Assembly: GCA_945877765.1 (NCBI GenBank)
Contig: CAMDWQ010000003.1
Coordinates: forward strand, 52,168-116,167
DNA: 64,000 nt
Source: Candidatus Omnitrophota bacterium
GTDB lineage: Bacteria; Omnitrophota; Gorgyraeia; 2-02-FULL-51-18
Direction: 5' to 3'
Shown: positions 2,971 through 37,168 of the stretch, in pieces
Numbering within the stretch: the first letter of the stretch is position 1
Layout of the letters: each line of letters opens with the position of its first letter
Program-made: the position numbers and the translations under genes
Notes under the pieces: model-generated
The model's input: the letters and a program-made list of their open reading frames with translations, nothing else
What the model was told of the DNA's origin: nothing
Databases searched by the model: none

Positions 2971-3035
2971 GTCATCCCCGAATGTATTAATCGGGGATCA
3001 TGTCTAGGTTTGATTCCCGCTTGCGCGGGAATGAC
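2971..3035. repeat. REP-like hairpin doublet (family 1)
   Basis: gtcatccccgaatgtattaatcggggatcat + gtctaggtt + tgattcccgcttgcgcgggaatgac, between ORF 2129..2959 and the tandem GT9 gene. Confidence 0.75.
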
Positions 3036-6834: not shown

Positions 6835-8979
6835 TTAGACACCCAGCTCTTTAAGTTTTTCAGAGGTCTGGCGGTCGGGCAGTGAACCTACCGACTTTTC
6901 ATTGGCAAAAAAAAGCGTTGAATCCAGTATTTCCTGGACTGTAATTTTTTTCATGCAAGGATGCCCAATGGGACAGCTGCGCAAATAACAAGGGCTGCAT
7001 TGAAGCTCTTTCCAGAATACCTGATAACGCAAAGGTGCGACCAAATGCCTTCGGGGATCTGTGGGTCCAAAAATCGCTATCAATGGCACCCCCACACTTG
7101 CCGCTATATGCATGGGTGCCGAATCAGAACTGATAAATACCTGGCATCGCCGCACCAGGGACACCAACTCACTGATCGACGTTTTTGCCACCGCATTAAT
7201 CGGTTTGTTTCTCGTCAAGCTGAATAGTTCCTCCGCCATCGGGATATCTTCGGCAGATCCGGTAATCACCACGCGAATATTGCGCTTGGCTAGCTCATCG
7301 CAAAGTTTCGCAAAATTTTCAACGGGCCACTGCTTCGTTGGCCAGCGCAGTGAAGAACCGGGGTTTATTCCCACTAATGTCTGACTTGGCGATACCCACT
7401 GAGATTCCAAAAACAAGCGGATGCGCTCGTCTTCCTCTTTCTGAGTCCACATTTCAAGACGCCGGTCCAAATGCTCGACCCCGACCAGTTTGAGTACCTG
7501 AAACTGATGCTCCAACGCCCCTAATCCCGGCGGCGAATCTTTCGTCTTTCGATTTAGAAAAAAAGCCCATTTCCTATTGTCATGTCCCGCCCGCAGTCGT
7601 GCCCCGGAACAAAAGGCTAGTAGATGGCTGATGCGGTTGTTTTGAAGATCCACCACCATATCAAAATCCTCATCCGACAAAAGACGCGTCATCTTCCACA
7701 GGGCCCTCATTTTATTTTTCCCAGGCATATCAAAAACAATGGTGTCATTGATGTAAGGGCAATTGCGGATAATGTTCCGTGCTTTTCTGCCAACGAGCAC
7801 CGAAAGATGGCTATTCGGAAACTTCTCCCGCAGAGCTCGTAAGGAAGGTAGGCTCAAAATGACATCCCCCAAAGCGCTAAGCTTAATCACCAAAATCTTT
7901 TTTTTGGCAACGGCCTCTTCGTAGACTTTTAAAGTTTTCTGAAACATTAGATCCAAATGAAATTCTTTATCCACTCTTGCTTTAAGAGAAAGCGCGCATT
8001 GCCGTGCAAACGCCGGATCCTTAAGATAGCGAAATACCGCATCCGCCAAAATCCTGGGGTCGTCGGGGGGAACCAAAAGACCGTCTCTTTCATGCTCCAA
8101 GATATCCACCAAACCGCCCATCCGCGTCGTCACCACCGGCACACCGGCAGCCCCCGCTTCGATTACCACTCTCCCAAAAGCCTCCTCGCCGACCGAAGGT
8201 GCCACTAAAATTGTCATTTTTGATAGCAGTTCGGCAATGTCATAACGGGTGCCAAGAAATTCAACTGCCTGCGACAAACCCAGATGCTTTACCAAAGAAA
8301 GCAGCTCGTCCTTGTACTGCGGTTTAGGCGCGTCTCCAATAATCTGAATTTTTACATGGGGATAGACACGCGAAACACGCGCCATGGCCTTAAGAAATAA
8401 CGGGTGCCCTTTAATCGGCGTCAACCGGCCGATGAGTCCGATGACAATATTTTTTGAAAAAACATCATCCGGTCTCTCATTAAATTTAAATTCATCCAAG
8501 TTAACACCGCGGGGGATCAGGCGAATTCTCGAATGCGGCACTCCAAAATCATCACGCATTCTTTTGCCGATAATATGACTGGCGACAATCACCAGCTTTC
8601 CCCACCCCATCACTCGGCTTAAAAGATGTTTGGAATAAAAACCGTGGCAGGTTGTCACTAGCGGAACATTCGTCCGGCGGCTGACAAAAAAAGCAATGAG
8701 TGCCGGGACTCGGCTTCGCGCATGAAGGACGTCAATTTTTTCAAGAACGACAATTTTGGAAAGCTCTCGAATGGCAACCAAGACAGAAAAAATATTTTTT
8801 TTGTGAACTGGGAGTGCGTAGTGTTTCACCCCCGCCGAAGTCAAATCCCCGACCATCGCGCCCCCAGCAGACACCACCACGGCACGGTGGCCGTTTTTCT
8901 GGAGATAACACGCCAAGTCGACAGTACCGCGCTCAACACCGCCCGACTGAAGTTCGGGTAAAATCTGAAGAATGTTCAT
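6835..8979 (-). CDS. Fusion glycosyltransferase: N-terminal GT4 (group 1) domain plus C-terminal GT9 heptosyltransferase domain
   Basis: N-terminal GT4 motifs (GGVERGTVDL, EEAFGRVVIEAGAAGVPVVTT); C-terminal GT9 motifs (KKILVIKLSALGDVILSLPSLRALREKFP ... ISSDSAPMHIAA). Confidence 0.8.
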   Translation of the reverse strand: MNILQILPELQSGGVERGTVDLACYLQKNGHRAVVVSAGGAMVGDLTSAGVKHYALPVHKKNIFSVLVAIRELSKIVVLEKIDVLHARSRVPALIAFFVSRRTNVPLVTTCHGFYSKHLLSRVMGWGKLVIVASHIIGKRMRDDFGVPHSRIRLIPRGVNLDEFKFNERPDDVFSKNIVIGLIGRLTPIKGHPLFLKAMARVSRVYPHVKIQIIGDAPKPQYKDELLSLVKHLGLSQAVEFLGTRYDIAELLSKMTILVAPSVGEEAFGRVVIEAGAAGVPVVTTRMGGLVDILEHERDGLLVPPDDPRILADAVFRYLKDPAFARQCALSLKARVDKEFHLDLMFQKTLKVYEEAVAKKKILVIKLSALGDVILSLPSLRALREKFPNSHLSVLVGRKARNIIRNCPYINDTIVFDMPGKNKMRALWKMTRLLSDEDFDMVVDLQNNRISHLLAFCSGARLRAGHDNRKWAFFLNRKTKDSPPGLGALEHQFQVLKLVGVEHLDRRLEMWTQKEEDERIRLFLESQWVSPSQTLVGINPGSSLRWPTKQWPVENFAKLCDELAKRNIRVVITGSAEDIPMAEELFSLTRNKPINAVAKTSISELVSLVRRCQVFISSDSAPMHIAASVGVPLIAIFGPTDPRRHLVAPLRYQVFWKELQCSPCYLRSCPIGHPCMKKITVQEILDSTLFFANEKSVGSLPDRQTSEKLKELGV

Positions 8980-10937
8980 CGGCTTATTTTTTGCGCCGCT
9001 TCACGAAGACGTTCTGAATCCGGATAAACGGCGACCCTGGCAGGAGAAGCTAGGCTTGCTTGGATTTGTGCGCTAAGATTTTCTGCAGTGACTCGTTGAA
9101 TAAGACCCTCATTTTCCATTAAATTTAAAAAATCCACAAACTTTGGCTTCCTGCGCAAACTTTCAAATGGCTCGACCACTAGCACCTTTTTACCCGATGC
9201 CGCCGCCTCTGAAATCATCGAAATTGATTCTCCCGTGACAACCACTAAATCCGAGAGCCCTAGAACTCCAAGAACAATGCCCGCGCGATTCGCTTCATTA
9301 GCGATCACTAAAAGCGGACACAGCGGCTCTTGGGCAAACTTTTCTTTAACCGCCGCTTCAGCCCAGGCGGGAGTTCGTCTGGAAGTCGTGACTAAAATCT
9401 GGGCGCCATTCTCCTGAATGCCCAACCGCAGGCTGTCCAAAATTTTTAAAAAAATATCTTTTTCAAAAATAATTTGCGCGGTGTCACCGCCCGCCAAAAA
9501 ACCAACCACTTTTGAGCCAGGCTTCAAGCTTATCTTATTCCCCAGCGCGGCTGACCCAATCTCAAGAGCCTCTTTAGAGACCTGGGTTAATGCCGCTTGG
9601 GTTTCAAAAACATTGCTATTTTTTTTAAGCCGATCATGCTTGGGGGCAACAATTGCATGAAAGTGCCTCAACCCAAATCCTGGATCCATGACCGCCACCG
9701 ACCGAGCTGCGTTTTCTCGAGCCGCCCAAAGATTAACCCCTGCTACCGAGGAACCGGCCGAGATCACAACATCCGCATAAGTCTGCATTATCTCACGATA
9801 CGAAGCCGGTGTTAAAAACATTTTTGCCCAAAACCTAGCGAAAGGAACGCGCCCGCCAAACAGACTGTTCAGTACCCTAAAAACTTTCTGAAAAAACTCA
9901 TGATGATATTGAACCTCAATGATCTTTAAATGCGTGCGCTCGGGTCCCAAACCGTCCTCCGCGCGCTGGCGGACAATCGTCTCATAAAGCGCCAGCGATT
10001 GGTTGCGGTGCCCCGCTTTTCCGTCACTCAAGACAAGCACAAAACGGTCCGGTGTCGATTTCCACCGGCGGTGAGCCCACAACCACTGGGCGGGCTCTTT
10101 TCTAATTTTAGCTTCCAAAATTACCGCAAACTGCGTAAGAATATTTTTTTCCTTTTCCTCATTGGTCCAGTCTTCAGGGGGTGCTATTAGCGGACCCTCA
10201 ACTTCAATGCGGTGGCTATCCACCCCCTCACGAAAAATAAACGTCGGAAAAATCCGCGCCCCGGTACGCGTTGCAAACGCGGCGACTCCCTTGGGGTAGG
10301 AGGACAGGCGCCCAAAAAACGGGACAAACGTTCCCGACTTTCCGCCATCCTGGTCTCCCAAAATCCCCACAATCCGACCCGCCTTCAAAGACCTCAAAAT
10401 CTCTCGAACCGGCATCCCCTTAAAAATAATTTCACTGCCCTGGGACCGGCGCAGGTCATTGAGATAAGCGTCCGAGCGTGGATGCTTTTGCTCGCGCGCC
10501 AACGCTGTCATGGGATACCCCAACAACCCTCCAGAAATACTTAATAGTTCCCAGTTTCCAAAATGAGCGGTAAGAAATATAACCCCCCGGCCCTCTTTAA
10601 GAACGTTGTCCACCTTTTGGCTGTCAATGACACGAATATGTTTTAAAGCAAATGCTTTATCCATATCAGGGGCATGCAAGAGTTCGATCCCAGCGCGGCC
10701 AATATTCCGAAACGACTCACGCGCAATTTTTTTAAGCTCGGCAGGAGATTTCTCGCCGGCAAATACGGCGCGAAGATTCTTAAGCATTACCGGATGACGT
10801 TTGGTGCCCCAATAAGCCACGTCCCCAATAAAAGATCCTAATTTAATCGCCGCGCGGTAGGGCAATATTTTTACGAGAAATCGGGCAAAGCGGATTGCGT
10901 TTAGCATCAACGCATCTTCGAAGGAGGTCTTGGTCAT
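8976..10937 (-). CDS. Lipid A biosynthesis (Kdo2-lipid IVA) late acyltransferase, LpxL/HtrB family, fused to a C-terminal ELM1/DUF1022-like domain
   Basis: N-terminal 290 aa match the LpxL family (LHAPDMDKAFALKHIRVID, FLTAHFGNWE). C-terminal ~350 aa resemble the Mito_fiss_Elm1 family (LSDGKAGHRNQSLAL). Confidence 0.7.
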   Translation of the reverse strand: MTKTSFEDALMLNAIRFARFLVKILPYRAAIKLGSFIGDVAYWGTKRHPVMLKNLRAVFAGEKSPAELKKIARESFRNIGRAGIELLHAPDMDKAFALKHIRVIDSQKVDNVLKEGRGVIFLTAHFGNWELLSISGGLLGYPMTALAREQKHPRSDAYLNDLRRSQGSEIIFKGMPVREILRSLKAGRIVGILGDQDGGKSGTFVPFFGRLSSYPKGVAAFATRTGARIFPTFIFREGVDSHRIEVEGPLIAPPEDWTNEEKEKNILTQFAVILEAKIRKEPAQWLWAHRRWKSTPDRFVLVLSDGKAGHRNQSLALYETIVRQRAEDGLGPERTHLKIIEVQYHHEFFQKVFRVLNSLFGGRVPFARFWAKMFLTPASYREIMQTYADVVISAGSSVAGVNLWAARENAARSVAVMDPGFGLRHFHAIVAPKHDRLKKNSNVFETQAALTQVSKEALEIGSAALGNKISLKPGSKVVGFLAGGDTAQIIFEKDIFLKILDSLRLGIQENGAQILVTTSRRTPAWAEAAVKEKFAQEPLCPLLVIANEANRAGIVLGVLGLSDLVVVTGESISMISEAAASGKKVLVVEPFESLRRKPKFVDFLNLMENEGLIQRVTAENLSAQIQASLASPARVAVYPDSERLREAAQKISR

Positions 10938-11958: not shown

Positions 11959-13223
11959 AAAATCTGTGTATTTCGGATCAAGGCACCGCGGTGTCCGGAC
12001 ACGAGATTTTGAGCTCTCTGTCCCATCTCGCGCGCCTGCGTCTGGTTCTGCATTAAAAAAACAAGTCTATCTTTCAAATCCCCGGCATCCTTGACGCCAA
12101 TTGCCGCCTTGCCGTTCAAAAAAAGCCGCGACATTTCAAAAAAATTATTCATGTATGGGCCGAATAAAATTGGCTTTGCATAGTAGGCCGGCTCCACTAA
12201 ATTGTGCCCCCCAACCTCCACCAAGCTCCCCCCAACAAACACCGCATCCGCCGCCTGATAAAAATAAGCCAAAAGCCCCATACGGTCCAATAGCCAAGCT
12301 TCCGGACCCCCCTCATCATAACCATTTTGTGCCCCGCTGAAAACTCTTTTTAATCGAATTCCTTTTGCCGCCGCGAGACCTTCTATTGAAGTAAGCCGAT
12401 CTAAATGCCGAGGCGCCAAAAAAAGCGTCAAATGCGGAAAAATTTCACGCAGTTGCAAATACGTGTCCATCAAAACCGCCTCTTCCCCCTCATGCGTACT
12501 GGCCCCAAGACACAAAAATTTCCCCGGCTGCGACAGCTTTTGCCGGACCGCCAATACCTCAGCGGACTCCCCTTGCGGCGGCTCCCAGTCAAATTTAAGA
12601 TTTCCTGTAATTTGCACCTTGCCAGGCTCCGCGCCCAGTTCAAGAAAGCGGTCCTGCATTCGCTCGTCCTGCGCACCAATAGCCGTCAGGCGGTTTAAAA
12701 TTGGCTTCAGAAAAAATCGAATTCGCCGGTATTTTGAAATCGCTTTGTCCGAAATGCGGCCATTTAAAATAAACAGGGGTATCTTTTTTTCCGAAAGCTC
12801 CCAAATCAAATTGGGCCAGATCTCCGTCTCCATAAAAGCCACCGCGTCCGGATGGACCGCCCGCACAAACCGCCTCACCGCAAAGCGAAAATCCACCGGA
12901 AACTGCAGCAACACATCCTGGGGATTCATCGACTTGGCCGCCACCTCATAACCGGTCACCGTTGTCGTCGTCAGAACAAACTTCACACCGGAAAATATTT
13001 CTCTCCAGTGACTGAGCACGCGTATCGCTAAAGCGACCTCCCCAACGGACACCGCATGGATCCAAATTACTTTTTTCCCTTTAAGCTTTTCCACCACCGC
13101 TTGCTCAACATGTCCCAATCGAGAACCCAAACCGCCCTTACTTTTCCCTTTGAGAATAAAAAGAGGCAAGTAGAAAAGAGAAAAGATAAAAAATAAAAAA
13201 TCATAAATAAGGCGGGTTAGCAT
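11928..13223 (-). CDS. waaA: 3-deoxy-D-manno-octulosonic acid (Kdo) transferase
   Basis: KVIWIHAVSVGEVALAIRVL motif; 431 aa GT30 family. Confidence 0.9.
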   Translation of the reverse strand: MLTRLIYDFLFFIFSLFYLPLFILKGKSKGGLGSRLGHVEQAVVEKLKGKKVIWIHAVSVGEVALAIRVLSHWREIFSGVKFVLTTTTVTGYEVAAKSMNPQDVLLQFPVDFRFAVRRFVRAVHPDAVAFMETEIWPNLIWELSEKKIPLFILNGRISDKAISKYRRIRFFLKPILNRLTAIGAQDERMQDRFLELGAEPGKVQITGNLKFDWEPPQGESAEVLAVRQKLSQPGKFLCLGASTHEGEEAVLMDTYLQLREIFPHLTLFLAPRHLDRLTSIEGLAAAKGIRLKRVFSGAQNGYDEGGPEAWLLDRMGLLAYFYQAADAVFVGGSLVEVGGHNLVEPAYYAKPILFGPYMNNFFEMSRLFLNGKAAIGVKDAGDLKDRLVFLMQNQTQAREMGQRAQNLVSGHRGALIRNTQIFCQSTGDIWK

Positions 13224-13287
13224 ATTAGATCCCTCGACTCTCCGCCAAAGATCGCTGGCGGATCGCTCGGGATGACACTATTACACA

Positions 13288-13450
13288 AAGGGTTGGCTGG
13301 CAAAGCTTTTTGAGACGCGTAGATAAGGCGAGCGGCCATGGTGTCCCCGTCGTAATAGACGGGGACGAGCGAGCTCTTATCTATCGAGTTAATTTTTCCT
13401 CGGAGGGGAAAAATTAACGCCGGCTCAAATAGATTTGCCAGCCAACCCTG
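13288..13450 (+). repeat. Copy A of a ~160-bp structured intergenic repeat (family 2): outer 16-bp inverted repeat enclosing a conserved ~110-nt multi-hairpin core
   Basis: Outer IR agggttggctggcaaa / tttgccagccaaccct. Core: gcgtagataaggcgagcggccatggtgtccccgtcgtaatagacggggacgagcgagctcttatctatcgagttaatttttcctcggaggggaaaaattaacgccggc. Confidence 0.8.
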
Positions 13451-13469
13451 GTTGTAGCCCACAAGCACC

Positions 13470-14357
13470 TCAAGCTCTTGGATGCGCTTTATCATAAGCC
13501 TCTTTTAACCTCTGTGTCGACACGTGCGTATATATCTGTGTCGTCGATAAATTTTCATGCCCTAAAAGTTCCTGCACCGAGCGCAAATCCGCCCCATGAT
13601 TTAAAAGATGTGTCGCAAATGAGTGTCGTAAAGTGTGCGGTGAAATATTATCTCTTTTGCAAGTATTTTCAATGTGCTTATCCACGATACGGCAGACGCT
13701 TCGGCTGGTCAAGCGAGACCCTTCTTGATTCGGCGAATGATTTAAAAAAAGTGCTCGCGAGGATCTTTTTTTTCCTTCGTCTCGCACCTGGAGGTACTGG
13801 CGAATGCATTTGAGCGCTCGGCTGCCGATGGGGCAAAATCTTTCCTTGTTTCCCTTCCCCAGCACCCGGCAAACCCCACCTATAAAATCAACCTTCTCAA
13901 GGTCAAGTCTCACAATTTCAGAAACTCGCATCCCCGTCGAGTACAGAGTCTCAAGAATCGCTCGGTCACGGCAGCCAAAAATATCCTCTCCTGGCGAATC
14001 CAAGAGCTTTGTCATCTCATCCTCTTCGAGCACCATCGGAAGCTTTTTCTCCTGCTTAGGGTTACGCACGCTAGCAATAGGGTTCTTTGCCAGGTGGCCT
14101 TCGCGCGTCAAAAATCGGAAGTACGTCCTTAGCGCCGCCATGCGCCGTGCCACCGTACGTTTGGACAGCTCCAGCTGGCTTAACGAAGCCAAATAACGTC
14201 TTATCAGATCCTTATTGAGCTCTGTTAATGGGACTTCTCCTAAAAATTCGTAGAAATTTTTTAAGTCATGCGTATAACTTAGCGTCGTGTGCGGAGAATA
14301 ATTTTTCTCGGCTCTCAAATAGACCAAAAATCTTTCCGTGAGCTTATTGGGAAACAT
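13470..14357 (-). CDS. xerC: Tyrosine recombinase XerC/XerD family. The probable true start is the internal Met at 14357; the ORF track extends it to 14570.
   Basis: RAEKNYSPHTTLSY ... HTLRHSFATHLLNHGADLRSVQELLGHENLSTTQIYTHV catalytic R-H-R-Y box. Confidence 0.85.
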   Translation of the reverse strand: MFPNKLTERFLVYLRAEKNYSPHTTLSYTHDLKNFYEFLGEVPLTELNKDLIRRYLASLSQLELSKRTVARRMAALRTYFRFLTREGHLAKNPIASVRNPKQEKKLPMVLEEDEMTKLLDSPGEDIFGCRDRAILETLYSTGMRVSEIVRLDLEKVDFIGGVCRVLGKGNKERFCPIGSRALKCIRQYLQVRDEGKKRSSRALFLNHSPNQEGSRLTSRSVCRIVDKHIENTCKRDNISPHTLRHSFATHLLNHGADLRSVQELLGHENLSTTQIYTHVSTQRLKEAYDKAHPRA

Positions 14358-14373: not shown

Positions 14374-16584
14374 TTACGCTTCTGGTTCTTGCGGTGATTC
14401 CTGGCCCTGGGCAGGCTTTGAGGCAGGGAGCCTATTGGTAATAAATGTACATGCCGGATAGGCCGTGCACCCAAAAAAAGAGCGTCCTTTTCCGGATTTA
14501 GCGCGGCGCGCGACAAGCTTTCCTGCGGTGCATTGCGGACAAGAGACATCCGTTGAAATGGATTTGGCATTTTTACATTCGGGCCAACCCGAGCAGCTCA
14601 TAAAACGTCCGCGGCGCCCCCACTTGATCACCATGGGTTTCCCGCACTGGCCGCAAACTTCATCGGTGGGCTCCGCCTCTCGCCGCACCGTTTGCATTTG
14701 GGTTTTTGCGGATTCGATTTGTCCGCTGAAAACATCGTAAAAATCCTTCACGACTTTTTTCCATCCCACAACGCCTTCTTCTACCTGGTCGAGACCTTCC
14801 TCTAGATGTGCGGTAAACTCAAAGTTGAGTACTTTCTCAAAATGTTTTACCAAAAGATCGGTTACCAGCATACCCAAATCCGTCGGTAGGAGGCTGCCGC
14901 CTTCACGTCGAATATAATCGCGGCTCGTGAGTGTCAAAATAATCGGTGCATAAGTGGATGGGCGGCCAATACCGCCCTCTTCCATCGCTTTGACCAACGA
15001 AGCATCGGTAAATCGCGGAGGCGGCTTAGTAAAATGCTGGATCGGATCAATCTTAAGCAGCTTTAAAACTTCTTTTTCCAAAAGCTCCGGCAGAGGATGA
15101 TCCTCTTCATCGGACCGGCCCGCAACGGCTAAAAATCCGGCAAACTCAACACGGCTACCCGTGGCGTGAAAAAAAAACTCACCCGCCTTGATAGTAGCCG
15201 CTTCTTGCGCGATAGAAGCGGGGGTCATTTGGCTAGCCACCGCCTGCTGCCAAATCAATGCATAAAGTTTTTGTTGGTCCGGCGTTAAATAGCTCTCAAT
15301 CTCCTGGGGCTTCCTAAAAAAAGAAGAGGGCCGAATGGCCTCATGGGCTTCCTGCGCCTGCTTTTTTGATTTGTACACATTGGGCATTGCCGGCAAATAA
15401 TCTTTTCCATAATTTTTTCCAATAAATTCACGGACTTCCTTAATCGCCTGATCCGATAGGCGAACAGAATCTGTTCGCATGTAGGTAATCAAACCAACGC
15501 TTCCCTCTTCGCCGATCTCCACACCTTCATAAAGCGTCTGGGCTACTTTCATTGTTTTTGAGGCGGGAAAGCGCAGCGCGTTATAAGCGGCCTGCTGAAG
15601 TTTGCTGGTAGTGAAGGGTGCCTGCGGATTTCTTTTTTTCTTTAACTTTTTAAGCTCTTCGACGACAAAAGATTGTGCTTTGGCCTTATCCAAGGTCTCT
15701 GCCGCCGTTTTTTGATTGGTAATCTCGGCTTTGACCTTGCCAATTTTTTCTAGTTTGGCTACAAAGGGGGTGTTGTCGCCTTTCTGCTTAGAGAGCTGGG
15801 CTTCAATCGTCCAGTATTCTTCCGGCTTAAACGCACGAACATCTCTTTCCCGATCAACAATTAGCCGCAGGGCTACTGACTGAACACGGCCCGCTGAGAG
15901 CCCGCGGCTTACTTTTTGCCACAGAAGCGGGCTTAAGTTGTAACCGACCAGACGGTCCAAAACTCGCCGCGCTTGCTGCGCATCCACAAGATTCTGGTTG
16001 ATCTCTAAAGGGTGTTTGAAGGCTTCTAGGATGGCGGTCTTAGTGATTTCATTGAATACCACACGATGCACTTCTTTGCCAGCACCCAATTGATTTTTTA
16101 AATGCCAGCTAATCGCTTCGCCTTCGCGGTCAGGATCGCAAGCCAGATAGAGTTTTAATTTTCCCTTATTTTTTTTCTTCAGGTCTGCCAGGGTTTTTTT
16201 GCGGTCCTTGGTAACAATGTACTGAGGCTCGAAATTATTTTCAATATCGATTCCCATTTTGCTTTTTGGCAGATCGACGACATGCCCCATGGAGGCGGCT
16301 ACTTCAAAGCCGGGCCCCAGATATTTCTGGATTGTTTTGCACTTGGCGGGTGATTCCACAATGACCAAAGCACCTTGCGGTTTGGCTCCGCCGCCAACAA
16401 AGTGAACGATCTCAATTTCGTCGCCTTCGTGGATCAGGGCTTGGGCAAGCCGCTCCTTAGGAATAATTTCAAAATTATGCTCAACGACGACTTTCTCCTT
16501 GGCCAGCGAAAGTTTATCCAAAAGCTGGGCGAGCGTGAGCGTCTCGTTAAAATCCTTAAGCTCACCATTTAATCGTATTTTCAT
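14374..16584 (-). CDS. topA: DNA topoisomerase I with an in-frame N-terminal 66-aa ThiS/MoaD-like beta-grasp domain ending in GGG
   Basis: The TopA core starts at LVIVESPAKCKTIQKYLG ... GHVVDLP and has C-terminal Zn ribbons. The preceding 66 aa (MKIRLNGE...EIEIVHFVGGG) are a textbook ThiS. No stop codon separates the two. Confidence 0.85.
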   Translation of the reverse strand: MKIRLNGELKDFNETLTLAQLLDKLSLAKEKVVVEHNFEIIPKERLAQALIHEGDEIEIVHFVGGGAKPQGALVIVESPAKCKTIQKYLGPGFEVAASMGHVVDLPKSKMGIDIENNFEPQYIVTKDRKKTLADLKKKNKGKLKLYLACDPDREGEAISWHLKNQLGAGKEVHRVVFNEITKTAILEAFKHPLEINQNLVDAQQARRVLDRLVGYNLSPLLWQKVSRGLSAGRVQSVALRLIVDRERDVRAFKPEEYWTIEAQLSKQKGDNTPFVAKLEKIGKVKAEITNQKTAAETLDKAKAQSFVVEELKKLKKKRNPQAPFTTSKLQQAAYNALRFPASKTMKVAQTLYEGVEIGEEGSVGLITYMRTDSVRLSDQAIKEVREFIGKNYGKDYLPAMPNVYKSKKQAQEAHEAIRPSSFFRKPQEIESYLTPDQQKLYALIWQQAVASQMTPASIAQEAATIKAGEFFFHATGSRVEFAGFLAVAGRSDEEDHPLPELLEKEVLKLLKIDPIQHFTKPPPRFTDASLVKAMEEGGIGRPSTYAPIILTLTSRDYIRREGGSLLPTDLGMLVTDLLVKHFEKVLNFEFTAHLEEGLDQVEEGVVGWKKVVKDFYDVFSGQIESAKTQMQTVRREAEPTDEVCGQCGKPMVIKWGRRGRFMSCSGWPECKNAKSISTDVSCPQCTAGKLVARRAKSGKGRSFFGCTAYPACTFITNRLPASKPAQGQESPQEPEA

Positions 16585-23626: not shown

Positions 23627-23695
23627 GTCATCCCCGAAGTGTTTAATCGTGGATCATGTTTGGTTTGATTCCCGATAAAAGCATTCGGGAATGAC
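23627..23695. repeat. REP-like hairpin doublet (family 1) between ilvC and ilvH
   Basis: gtcatccccgaagtgtttaatcgtggatcat + gtttggtttg + attcccgataaaagcattcgggaatgac. Confidence 0.75.
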
Positions 23696-23701
23696 GTATA
23701 G

Positions 23702-24235: not shown

Positions 24236-24305
24236 GTCATCCCCGAAATTATTTATCGGGGATCATACCCTGGTTTGATTCCCGATTAGAGATCTCGGGA
24301 ATGAC
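24236..24305. repeat. REP-like hairpin doublet (family 1) between ilvH and ilvB
   Basis: gtcatccccgaaattatttatcggggatcat + accctggtttg + attcccgattagagatctcgggaatgac. Confidence 0.75.
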
Positions 24306-24323
24306 AAGGGTTGGGAATTGTTA

Positions 24324-32145: not shown

Positions 32146-32165
32146 ATTTTCATCCCAGTCAATCC

Positions 32166-32215
32166 GTCATCCCAACCAAACCGTCATTCCCGAGAGTTCT
32201 AATCGGGAATCAAAC
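32166..32215. repeat. REP-like element (partial first arm plus complete second hairpin), directly abutting family-2 copy C
   Basis: gtcatcccaaccaaacc + gtcattcccgagagttctaatcgggaatcaaac. Confidence 0.65.
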
Positions 32216-32236
32216 TTGGTATTAACGTGTTCTTCG

Positions 32237-32416
32237 GTGTTGCGCCGGGGCCTGTCCGGGGAAGCTTTTCGGGCCGGCGTTTAATTTGCCCCGCCGTGGC
32301 AAATTAAACTCGATAGATAAGGACTCGCTCGTCCCATCTATTACGATGGGACACCATGGCCGCTCGTCTTATCTACGCGTCCCAAAAAGATTCCCCGGCC
32401 ACCCGGCGCGGTGTTA
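32237..32416 (-). repeat. Copy C of family-2 structured repeat, in inverted orientation, between the cysteine desulfurase gene and metG. It is flanked by the direct repeat GGTGTT.
   Basis: The reverse complement aligns to copies A and B over the whole core. The outer imperfect IR is gcgccgggg..ccggggaa..ttttcggg / cccaaaaag..ttccccgg..cccggcgc. GGTGTT occurs at both ends. Confidence 0.75.
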
Positions 32417-37001: not shown

Positions 37002-37168
37002 GAGGCGGTTTAGCGATAAATCTTTTATGGCCGCGTTGATGAGGCGAACGGCCATGGTGTCCCCATCGTAGTAGATGGGGACGAGCGAGCCCTCATCTAT
37101 CGAGTTAAATTTTCCTCGGAGGGGAAAATTTAACGCCGGCCAGAAAAGATTTATCGCTAAACCGCCTC
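37002..37168 (+). repeat. Copy B of family-2 structured repeat (perfect 25-bp outer inverted repeat), sitting exactly between cysE and cysS
   Basis: Outer IR gaggcggtttagcgataaatctttt / aaaagatttatcgctaaaccgcctc. Same core as copy A, with compensatory substitutions in each stem. Confidence 0.8.

Follow-up and report, generated by a model that had tools for sequence, protein, structure and literature searches.

A 64,000-nucleotide (nt) stretch of DNA from a Candidatus Omnitrophota bacterium (assembly GCA_945877765.1, contig CAMDWQ010000003.1, positions 52,168 to 116,167 of the forward strand), hereafter the window, contains three copies, A, B and C, of an intergenic element that folds as a three-way junction. 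The element represents a genuine new family, being neither an artefact nor an ordinary miniature inverted-repeat transposable element (MITE). Its folded structure is real and belongs to one strand, the top strand, defined as the one reading CGGCCATGGTG. Our preferred reading, held tentatively and with less than even confidence, is that the element is a strand-specific single-stranded-DNA or cruciform repeat bound by a putative protein.

An original prediction, made from the letters of the window, had described a three-copy structured element, and inspection of the sequence finds all three loci within a few bases of where it had placed them. CGGCCATGGTGTCCC is present exactly three times in the 64-kb window, as is ATCTATCGAGTT, always at A, B and C. 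The copies have a core of about 110-135 nt in common, with a mean column identity of 82% in a three-way alignment, and every copy is predicted to fold as a three-way junction closed by a long stem (P1), with a P4 hairpin and an arm in which P2 is followed by a conserved internal loop and the P3 hairpin. The predicted fold energies of A, B and C are -89.2, -100.4 and -91.6 kcal/mol, and relative to dinucleotide shuffles the z-scores are -9.1, -12.1 and -6.8; both strands of a window copy are predicted to fold strongly. Scanning the window with a covariance model, built from 63 homologue sequences, returned A, B and C only, at 91-103 bits, the runner-up scoring 8.6 bits.

The three copies sit in tight intercistronic gaps, 3, 5 and 19 nt from a stop codon, between neighbours whose gene names the original prediction had right: waaA/xerC for A, cysE/cysS for B and metG/iscS-like for C. 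All open reading frames (ORFs) that were checked are housekeeping genes; they comprise those of the first 29 kb and the direct neighbours of the three copies. The credible genes of the window are all on the minus strand, and the few plus-strand ORFs of at least 150 aa overlap minus-strand genes. The copies, with the parts of copy A, are as follows.

13290..13448, plus strand: copy A, whole element; 91.2 bits; the folded (top) strand is the plus strand, antisense to the genes; lies between the xerC stop (13470) and the waaA start (13223), with an orthologous copy in locus L220.
13290..13314, plus strand: P1 5' arm of copy A, GGGTTGGCTGGCAAAGCTTTTTGAG, pairing with 13424-13448 (fold and arm-to-arm match).
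13321..13328, plus strand: P2 5' arm of copy A, AGATAAGG, pairing with 13374-13382 (fold and covariation).
13329..13343, plus strand: conserved 5' strand of the P2/P3 internal loop of copy A, CGAGCGGCCATGGTG, conserved in nearly all homologues; its CGAG faces the CGAG at 13370-13373, with which it probably makes tandem sheared G·A pairs.
13343..13366, plus strand: P3 hairpin of copy A, GTCCCCGTC, loop GTAATA, GACGGGGAC (fold; covariation, helix 4).
13365..13373, plus strand: conserved 3' strand of the internal loop of copy A, ACGAGCGAG (alignments).
13374..13382, plus strand: P2 3' arm of copy A, CTCTTATCT (fold and covariation).
13383..13388, plus strand: junction strand J2/4 of copy A, ATCGAG (family consensus nCGAGCG).
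13389..13417, plus strand: P4 hairpin of copy A, TTAATTTTTCC, loop TCGGAGG, GGAAAAATTAA (covariation, helix 5; family loop consensus C-NCGGNGG-G).
13418..13448, plus strand: junction strand J4/1 of copy A (CGCCGG), then the P1 3' arm (fold).
37002..37168, plus strand: copy B, whole element; 93.8 bits; top strand antisense to the genes; occupies the cysE-cysS gap, 3 nt past the cysE stop and 13 nt ahead of the cysS start.
37002-37033 and 37136-37168, plus strand: P1 arms of copy B; model core 37017-37154 (fold, covariance model).
32242..32409, minus strand: copy C, whole element; 103.3 bits; sense to the genes; directly past the metG stop (32422).
32381-32409 and 32242-32273, minus strand: P1 arms of copy C; model core 32259-32394 (fold, covariance model).
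32410-32415 and 32236-32241: direct repeat AACAC(C) around copy C.

The range first proposed for copy C (32237-32416) thus captured a real locus but took in the flanking AACAC(C) direct repeat. AACAC(C) flanks are also found at the L220 orthologue of copy A (9838-9971), and CAC flanks copy B; AACAC(C) may be an end motif of one subfamily, with no family-wide signal above chance.

The compensatory changes that the original prediction reported between the copies are present in each of the three helices concerned. From A to B, a G:C pair of P3 becomes A:T, an A:T pair of P2 becomes G:C and T:A in P4 becomes A:T; in C, a P4 T:A is replaced by G:C and P3 carries a matched 1-bp deletion in both arms. 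The P3 arm written as 'cgaCggggac' does not literally occur in the sequence, the true arms being GTCCCCGTC and GACGGGGAC around a 6-nt loop. At the scale of the family, RNAalifold applied to a MAFFT-based alignment of 31 sequences predicted 27 pairs, 19 of them with compensatory changes. In the alignment of 108 copies to the covariance model, 93.7% of the cells are paired, against 67.6% in shuffles, double-sided changes occur in 19 of 22 pairs (560 cells), and the covariation score is 0.552 vs 0.131, a value that 0 of 500 shuffles reached. As a control, sliding the helix partners cut pairing to 33-53%. Since the model alignment is fitted to the structure of the model, its pairing is somewhat inflated; the MAFFT-based RNAalifold result agrees with it. 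We regard the structure as real because covariation lies far above both the shuffles and the slid controls.

The expectation of a structure-conserving family is likewise borne out, by about 110 further homologues with strong covariation in every helix, found in metagenomes and in genomes of Omnitrophota, Patescibacteria, Elusimicrobiota and Planctomycetia. When one genome per species was scanned with a sequence pattern, at least 28 true homologues turned up in genome contigs. According to the record titles, these include at least seven Omnitrophota metagenome-assembled genomes (MAGs), several holding two or three copies, the patescibacterial groups Sungbacteria, Saccharibacteria and Parcubacteria, and one or more matches in Planctomycetia; one Elusimicrobiota MAG has three near-identical copies. 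This first genome-wide pattern was too loose, chance matches in high-GC genomes dominating its output, and the taxonomic range of at least four phyla is a lower bound. A tighter pattern retrieved 96 metagenome stretches, about 85 of them true, and the covariance model located 108 copies in 100 metagenome and assembly loci. Elements across the family measure about 170-250 nt.

On the top strand, the first half of the family consensus reads P1, RCGU, P2, CGAG-CGGCCAUGGUGUC and P3, and the second half reads GAC-GAG-CGAG, P2', nCGAGCG, P4 (loop C-NCGGNGG-G), AGCG and P1'. Part of the apparent invariance reflects the inclusion of CGGCCATGGTG in the search pattern; the flanking CGAG and TC were outside it. 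Model matches that lack the exact pattern define a second type of core, GAGCGGGCAYGGUU...GAGAGCGAG, whose P4 loop is CWCGCUGGGG. P1 is long (median of 25 pairs) and in many members is segmented by CGAG/CGAG tandem G·A loops. The internal loop of the P2-P3 arm is asymmetric and conserved, and an 8-nt motif, CCAYGGUG, appears twice per element, in this internal loop and in the P4 loop. Several members (L155 2600-2900 on the minus strand, L180, L027, L034, L044 and L097) have big structured insertions within the element, none holding an ORF, which take the form of about 130 nt between P2' and P4, a hairpin nested in P4 or an extension of P3 to about 40 nt.

The original prediction recognised no described RNA family in the element, and indeed it matches no Rfam 15 family: neither the window nor 20 homologous loci gave a match at the gathering score, and at E<=10 there was nothing over 13200-13540 around copy A and only unrelated weak matches in L001. 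This holds for the hammerhead, twister, twister-sister, pistol, hatchet, HDV-like and HEARO models. The tighter pattern had no match in viral contigs, blastn had none in plasmid and phage collections, and no account of the element came up in the literature searched by sequence and keyword. TIGR-Tas arrays were considered and rejected, being tandem arrays beside Tas genes with CCA/UG boxes and unpaired spacers.

Several observations assign the fold to the top strand. Within the confidently paired regions of 113 unique P1 stems (2,821 pairs), 2x2 internal loops are GA/GA in 63 cases and TC/TC in 0, and single mismatches are purine-purine in 84 cases vs pyrimidine-pyrimidine in 17. With RNA parameters, the top strand is also predicted to be more stable than its complement in 141 of 141 elements (mean difference of 10.7 kcal/mol); with DNA parameters, the same is true of 136 of the 141. 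Where the flanking genes are co-directional, this strand is antisense to them in 43 cases and sense in 11 (about 80% antisense, using crude ORF calls).

We favor DNA as the folded molecule because of this antisense bias, the lack of credible genes on the plus strand and of promoter-like sites on it around A and B, the rarity of G·U pairs, the C-GNA-G triloops and the failure of any Rfam family to match. No promoter-like or terminator-like site was found on the plus strand around A or B, promoter and terminator signals around all three copies do not rise above chance, and none of the three is followed by a U-tract (Rho-independent) terminator. In subfamily X, hardly any upstream sequence in which a promoter might lie belongs to the mobile unit. 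From GC skew, the plus strand, which is the top strand of A and B, is the presumed leading-strand template. The core helices have 23 G·U and 29 A·C among 2,078 cells, about 1% each; in RNA helices the G·U content is typically far above about 1%, and DNA hairpins typically have hardly any wobble pairs and GNA triloops closed by C:G. Among short P3 loops, in a set that includes a few chance matches, 17 are C-GNA-G triloops, two are GNRA and none is UNCG; as a DNA mini-hairpin, d(GCGNAGC) has exceptional stability. Stable tandem sheared G·A pairs form in DNA and RNA alike.

These same observations bear on the other class of molecule that the original prediction had put forward, a structured noncoding RNA (ncRNA) or ribozyme. 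We judge it fairly unlikely that the element is an ncRNA made from the top strand, whether a protein-binding RNA rich in tandem G·A motifs or a new self-cleaving ribozyme, that spreads as a selfish gene. It would fit the conserved junction and loop nucleotides, the variable-length helix tips and the strong covariation, the confinement of the purine-purine motifs to the top strand, the excess of G·U over A·C in P1 (37 vs 11), a possible loop-loop covariation and the resemblance of the junction CUGAUGAG...CGAA of some Patescibacteria copies to the hammerhead core; the antisense bias would then arise because sense insertions making an active RNA inside operons are harmful. However, in co-directional contexts about 80% of the copies run against all of the genes around them. 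The strand carrying A and B offers neither a credible gene nor, around these copies, a promoter-like or terminator-like site, and A is nonetheless conserved with an orthologue in the same antisense orientation. The subfamily X unit leaves almost no room for a promoter, core G·U does not outnumber A·C, hardly any loop is of the GNRA or UNCG type, and no hammerhead, twister or other Rfam model matches. The RNA half of the original alternative is therefore weakened by the antisense orientation and by the core G·U count, and its other half, a DNA structure recognised by a structure-specific enzyme, is the one that we favor. Were the RNA reading right, the family would constitute a new candidate class of ribozyme or ribonucleoprotein (RNP) with more than 100 covarying sequences.

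Comparison with syntenic relatives, in which CysS is 73-76% identical, the gene order is the same and the gaps are much smaller, indicates how the copies arrived. At the site of B, six of seven relatives have a cysE-cysS gap of 9-33 nt and the seventh, L218, has one of 97 nt; at the site of C, L212 and L217 have a metG-iscS gap of 0 nt. The covariance model detected no copy in five relative loci (L212, L214 and L216-L218). The sites of B and C being empty in relatives, we conclude that both copies, whole outer stems included, are insertions. Elsewhere, in other genomes, subfamily copies are 89-96% identical over 220-250 nt, P1 included, at unrelated loci; P1 is thus inherited, and its variants define subfamilies. 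The original prediction had taken the differing outer stems as an argument against mobility, and this argument falls on both counts: same-stem subfamilies lie at unrelated loci, P1 being inherited within the unit, and the B and C sites are empty in syntenic relatives. Other origins of the outer stem were rejected. It is not a pre-existing target palindrome, the empty sites being merely 0-33 nt, nor is it made anew at each insertion, P1 being common to the members of a subfamily; as for a guide to other loci, the arms of A and B have no extra match in the window except two 3-mismatch matches for A, near chance.

About ten loci contain adjacent pairs of copies, always divergent and most combining a type-1 with a type-2 core, and truncated copies adjoin full ones. 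Such pairs lie at L127 247-549, L207 7863-8190, L172 3711-4048, L152 8074-8369, L129 798-1143 and L173 4574-4956, with the top-strand 5' ends of the paired elements facing each other in a doublet layout reminiscent of REPINs.

An ordinary MITE moved by a DDE cut-and-paste transposase, with the structure a by-product of terminal inverted repeats, would share with the element its multiple, intergenic, insertion-polymorphic copies and long inverted outer arms. We consider this explanation highly improbable, in agreement with the original prediction, which had set it aside. Flanking direct repeats in 138 elements have the same lengths as in a shuffled control, leaving target-site duplications no commoner than chance. 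No terminal repeats are shared across the family: the outer arms differ between subfamilies around a centre that is preserved from phylum to phylum, and a MITE would show the opposite. The internal helices covary, and neither the flanks nor the plasmid and phage collections yielded a related transposase gene or end.

After insertion, a copy can be kept at one locus under purifying selection. In L220, which comes from a closer relative (GCA_964492015.1; its WaaA is 71% identical), the xerC-waaA junction also harbours a copy, in the same antisense orientation and scoring 87.6 bits. This copy is 80% identical to copy A, as compared with 76% for the waaA coding sequence, and the intergenic bases outside the element cannot be aligned. 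Its P1 (GCGCCGGGTGGCCGGG...) and AACAC flanks match copy C of the window, and P1 of copy A represents a divergent form of the L220/C stem, with the same substitutions on both arms. The original statement that all three outer stems are unrelated hence stands for B only; those of A and C are diverged homologues, as becomes clear once L220 is included. A, B, C and the L220 copy are 75-80% identical to each other, and this level of identity, together with the L220 orthologue, indicates old paralogues kept under constraint rather than fresh insertions.

Retention at an orthologous operon junction would also suit a cis-acting hairpin of the operon transcript that works in either orientation, as an RNase III site, 3'-end stabiliser, insulator or terminator, and derives from a co-opted mobile repeat; such co-option of mobile repeats has been proposed for REP, ERIC and Correia elements. 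The placement of the copies in tight intercistronic gaps just past stop codons (3, 5 and 19 nt) agrees with this possibility, as do the strong folding of both strands and the almost purely Watson-Crick helices, which allow pairing on both. We nevertheless hold it to be improbable: it leaves unexplained the strand-specific core and the GA/GA motifs, which lie on the non-transcribed strand in most copies, no U-tract terminator is present, and relatives manage with 0-33-nt gaps at the same junctions.

As the results above show, the element arrives by insertion, outer stem included, spreads as subfamilies and leaves no target-site duplication. In the strand-specific DNA repeat that we favor, the fold would be read as single-stranded or extruded (cruciform) DNA and not as a transcript. 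The conserved unpaired segments and the doubled CCAYGGUG could serve as a docking or cleavage site for a putative trans-acting protein, for which an HUH/Y1-type nuclease, a recombinase and a junction-binding topology factor are candidates, and the variable stems would need only to pair. A more far-reaching version of this proposal, which we rate as possible but on balance unlikely, is that the element is the substrate of an undescribed mobility or processing system, namely a self-folding single-stranded-DNA three-way junction (less likely a new ribozyme or RNP RNA), with conserved loops serving as recognition sites for a putative structure-specific enzyme common to Omnitrophota, Patescibacteria, Elusimicrobiota and Planctomycetota. 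If true, it would be a new class of structured mobile element, in which loops are conserved and stems are free.

A number of results count against this DNA reading. The search for a partner protein came up empty: across 107 loci, no family of proteins recurs at distances of up to 4 kb from the element, the neighbours being housekeeping genes only (e.g., fusA, uvrA, queA, tgt and ileS). A RAYT or other transposase gene, to which the original prediction had drawn attention, was not detected near the element by neighbour clustering or by a search with one RAYT-like protein, and Y1/RAYT homologues are absent from the element-bearing loci searched and from the window. A purely selfish repeat would not usually be kept at an orthologous locus. 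The orientation counts depend on crude ORF calls, and since promoter rules for these phyla are not established, antisense transcription could still occur. Within P1, G·T pairs outnumber A·C (37 vs 11 of 2,821 pairs, both about 1%), an excess that fits RNA or simply the stability order of DNA mismatches. About 35 unpaired nt are conserved across phyla, and variable-length extra hairpins occur at the P3 tip, in J2/4 and in P4, both of which are typical of functional RNAs. Finally, position 3 of the J-loop covaries with position 5 of the P4 loop, 121 of 124 sequences being consistent with a pair; the covariation points to a possible tertiary pair, likewise a typical trait of functional RNAs, and probably reflects one or two evolutionary events only.

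If correct, the DNA reading would describe a deeply conserved, strand-specific folded element across candidate phyla without cultured model organisms, and its well-defined motif would provide a handle for finding the partner protein, be it an HUH nuclease, a recombinase or a junction-binding factor. The repeats also have practical consequences, as they break short-read and metagenome assemblies and mark operon junctions, which matters for the binning and annotation of Omnitrophota and candidate phyla radiation (CPR) genomes. In L215, another assembly of the same organism, the contig starts inside copy B and ends inside P1 of copy C.

Further observations concern the insertion sites and the other genes of the window. 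In two relatives, the metG-iscS gap in which C resides is occupied by a PIN-domain gene with a small upstream ORF (L214 10556-11250 and L218 5952-6567); the small ORF of L214 is FitA-like, making up a FitA/PIN toxin-antitoxin pair. The metG-iscS junction seems to be a hot spot for insertions. Topoisomerase I, encoded at 14374-16584 on the minus strand, has an N-terminal ThiS/MoaD-like ubiquitin-fold domain (PF02597), a fusion also seen in L219 and L220. The gene at 8976-10937 on the minus strand fuses a lipid A acyltransferase (PF03279) to an Elm1-like domain (PF06258), and the same fusion occurs in L219 and L220.

The lifestyle of the element resembles those of repetitive extragenic palindromic (REP) sequences and REPINs, attC sites and IS200/IS605 ends, although it departs from each of them in defining features. 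REPs and REPINs, which are mobilised by the Y1 HUH transposases known as RAYTs, are likewise short, non-coding, multi-copy intergenic palindromes without target-site duplications, often just past stop codons, in inverted doublets and clusters and sometimes kept at orthologous sites, and they are presumed to work as folded single-stranded DNA. In both, the helices have a conserved tetranucleotide beside them, GTAG in REPs and CGAG in the element. REPs, however, are 20-40 nt long, with stems conserved within a genome, and are species- or genus-specific, whereas the element has a core of about 110 nt that forms a three-way junction, is conserved across phyla and has variable stems, and no RAYT was detected near any copy in the element-bearing loci searched. 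In L218, a gene for a 232-aa Y1_Tnp (RAYT-like) protein at 7142-7840 lies between inverted REPs containing GGTGACACACACC; the lineage therefore has HUH transposases, this one being accompanied by a REP family of its own, with no three-way-junction element nearby. The window itself has a separate REPIN-like inverted-doublet family, GTCATCCCCGAA..ATCGGGGATCA..GGTTTGATTCCCGAT..TCGGGGATGAC, in intergenic gaps at 913-952, 2102-2177, 2971-3035, 23627-23701, 24236-24311, 32150-32234 and ~13236-13279, and two of these doublets directly abut copies A and C.

As in attC sites, structure is conserved over stem sequence, one strand is, on our reading, the active folded single-stranded DNA, the position is immediately 3' of ORFs with an orientation bias, and the terminal structure is variable and sometimes branched. 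The base of attC carries R''/R' boxes (GTTRRRY; RYYYAAC/GTTRRRY) and its tip varies, and attC sites occur in cassette arrays beside intI; the P1 bases of the element have no such boxes, its tip is conserved and its base variable, and its neighbours are housekeeping genes, the only integrase among them being XerC-like. IS200/IS605 ends and palindrome-associated transposable elements (PATEs) share with it the lack of terminal inverted repeats and target-site duplications and, on the DNA reading, a strand-specific recognition of single-stranded-DNA hairpins and an orientation bias tied to the replication strand. They differ in having two similar subterminal hairpins in the same orientation and defined cleavage tetranucleotides, where the element is a single closed rod; no TnpA-like (Y1_Tnp) homologue is present in the element flanks examined, and no TnpB search was made. 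IS608 follows a replication-strand rule that is the reverse of the situation of A and B, whose top strand is on the presumed leading-strand template.

Two further likenesses, the first no more than an analogy, concern the junction. The inverted terminal repeats (ITRs) of the parvovirus adeno-associated virus (AAV) are T-shaped, three-way-junction single-stranded-DNA hairpins with GAGC repeats that are bound by the HUH protein Rep; there the GAGC repeats are in Watson-Crick duplex, whereas GAGCG/CGAG of the element faces itself as G·A pairs, and the ITR is a eukaryotic viral telomere and not a dispersed bacterial repeat. The hammerhead ribozyme similarly arranges three helices around a core with tandem G·A pairs, and some Patescibacteria copies read CUGAUGAG-stem-CGAA, but most members of the family read CGAGCG...AGCG or CGAUGAG. 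A hammerhead was rejected, as there is no Rfam hammerhead match and neither the A15.1-U16.1 pair nor the UH cleavage site is conserved. Lastly, MITEs of the Correia, ERIC and RPE types are palindromic intergenic repeats of 100-170 nt that can be co-transcribed with their neighbours, but they have conserved terminal repeats and target duplications such as TA, are lineage-specific and have internal helices that do not covary. The element, with its core conserved and its arms free, reverses the usual logic of bacterial repeats.

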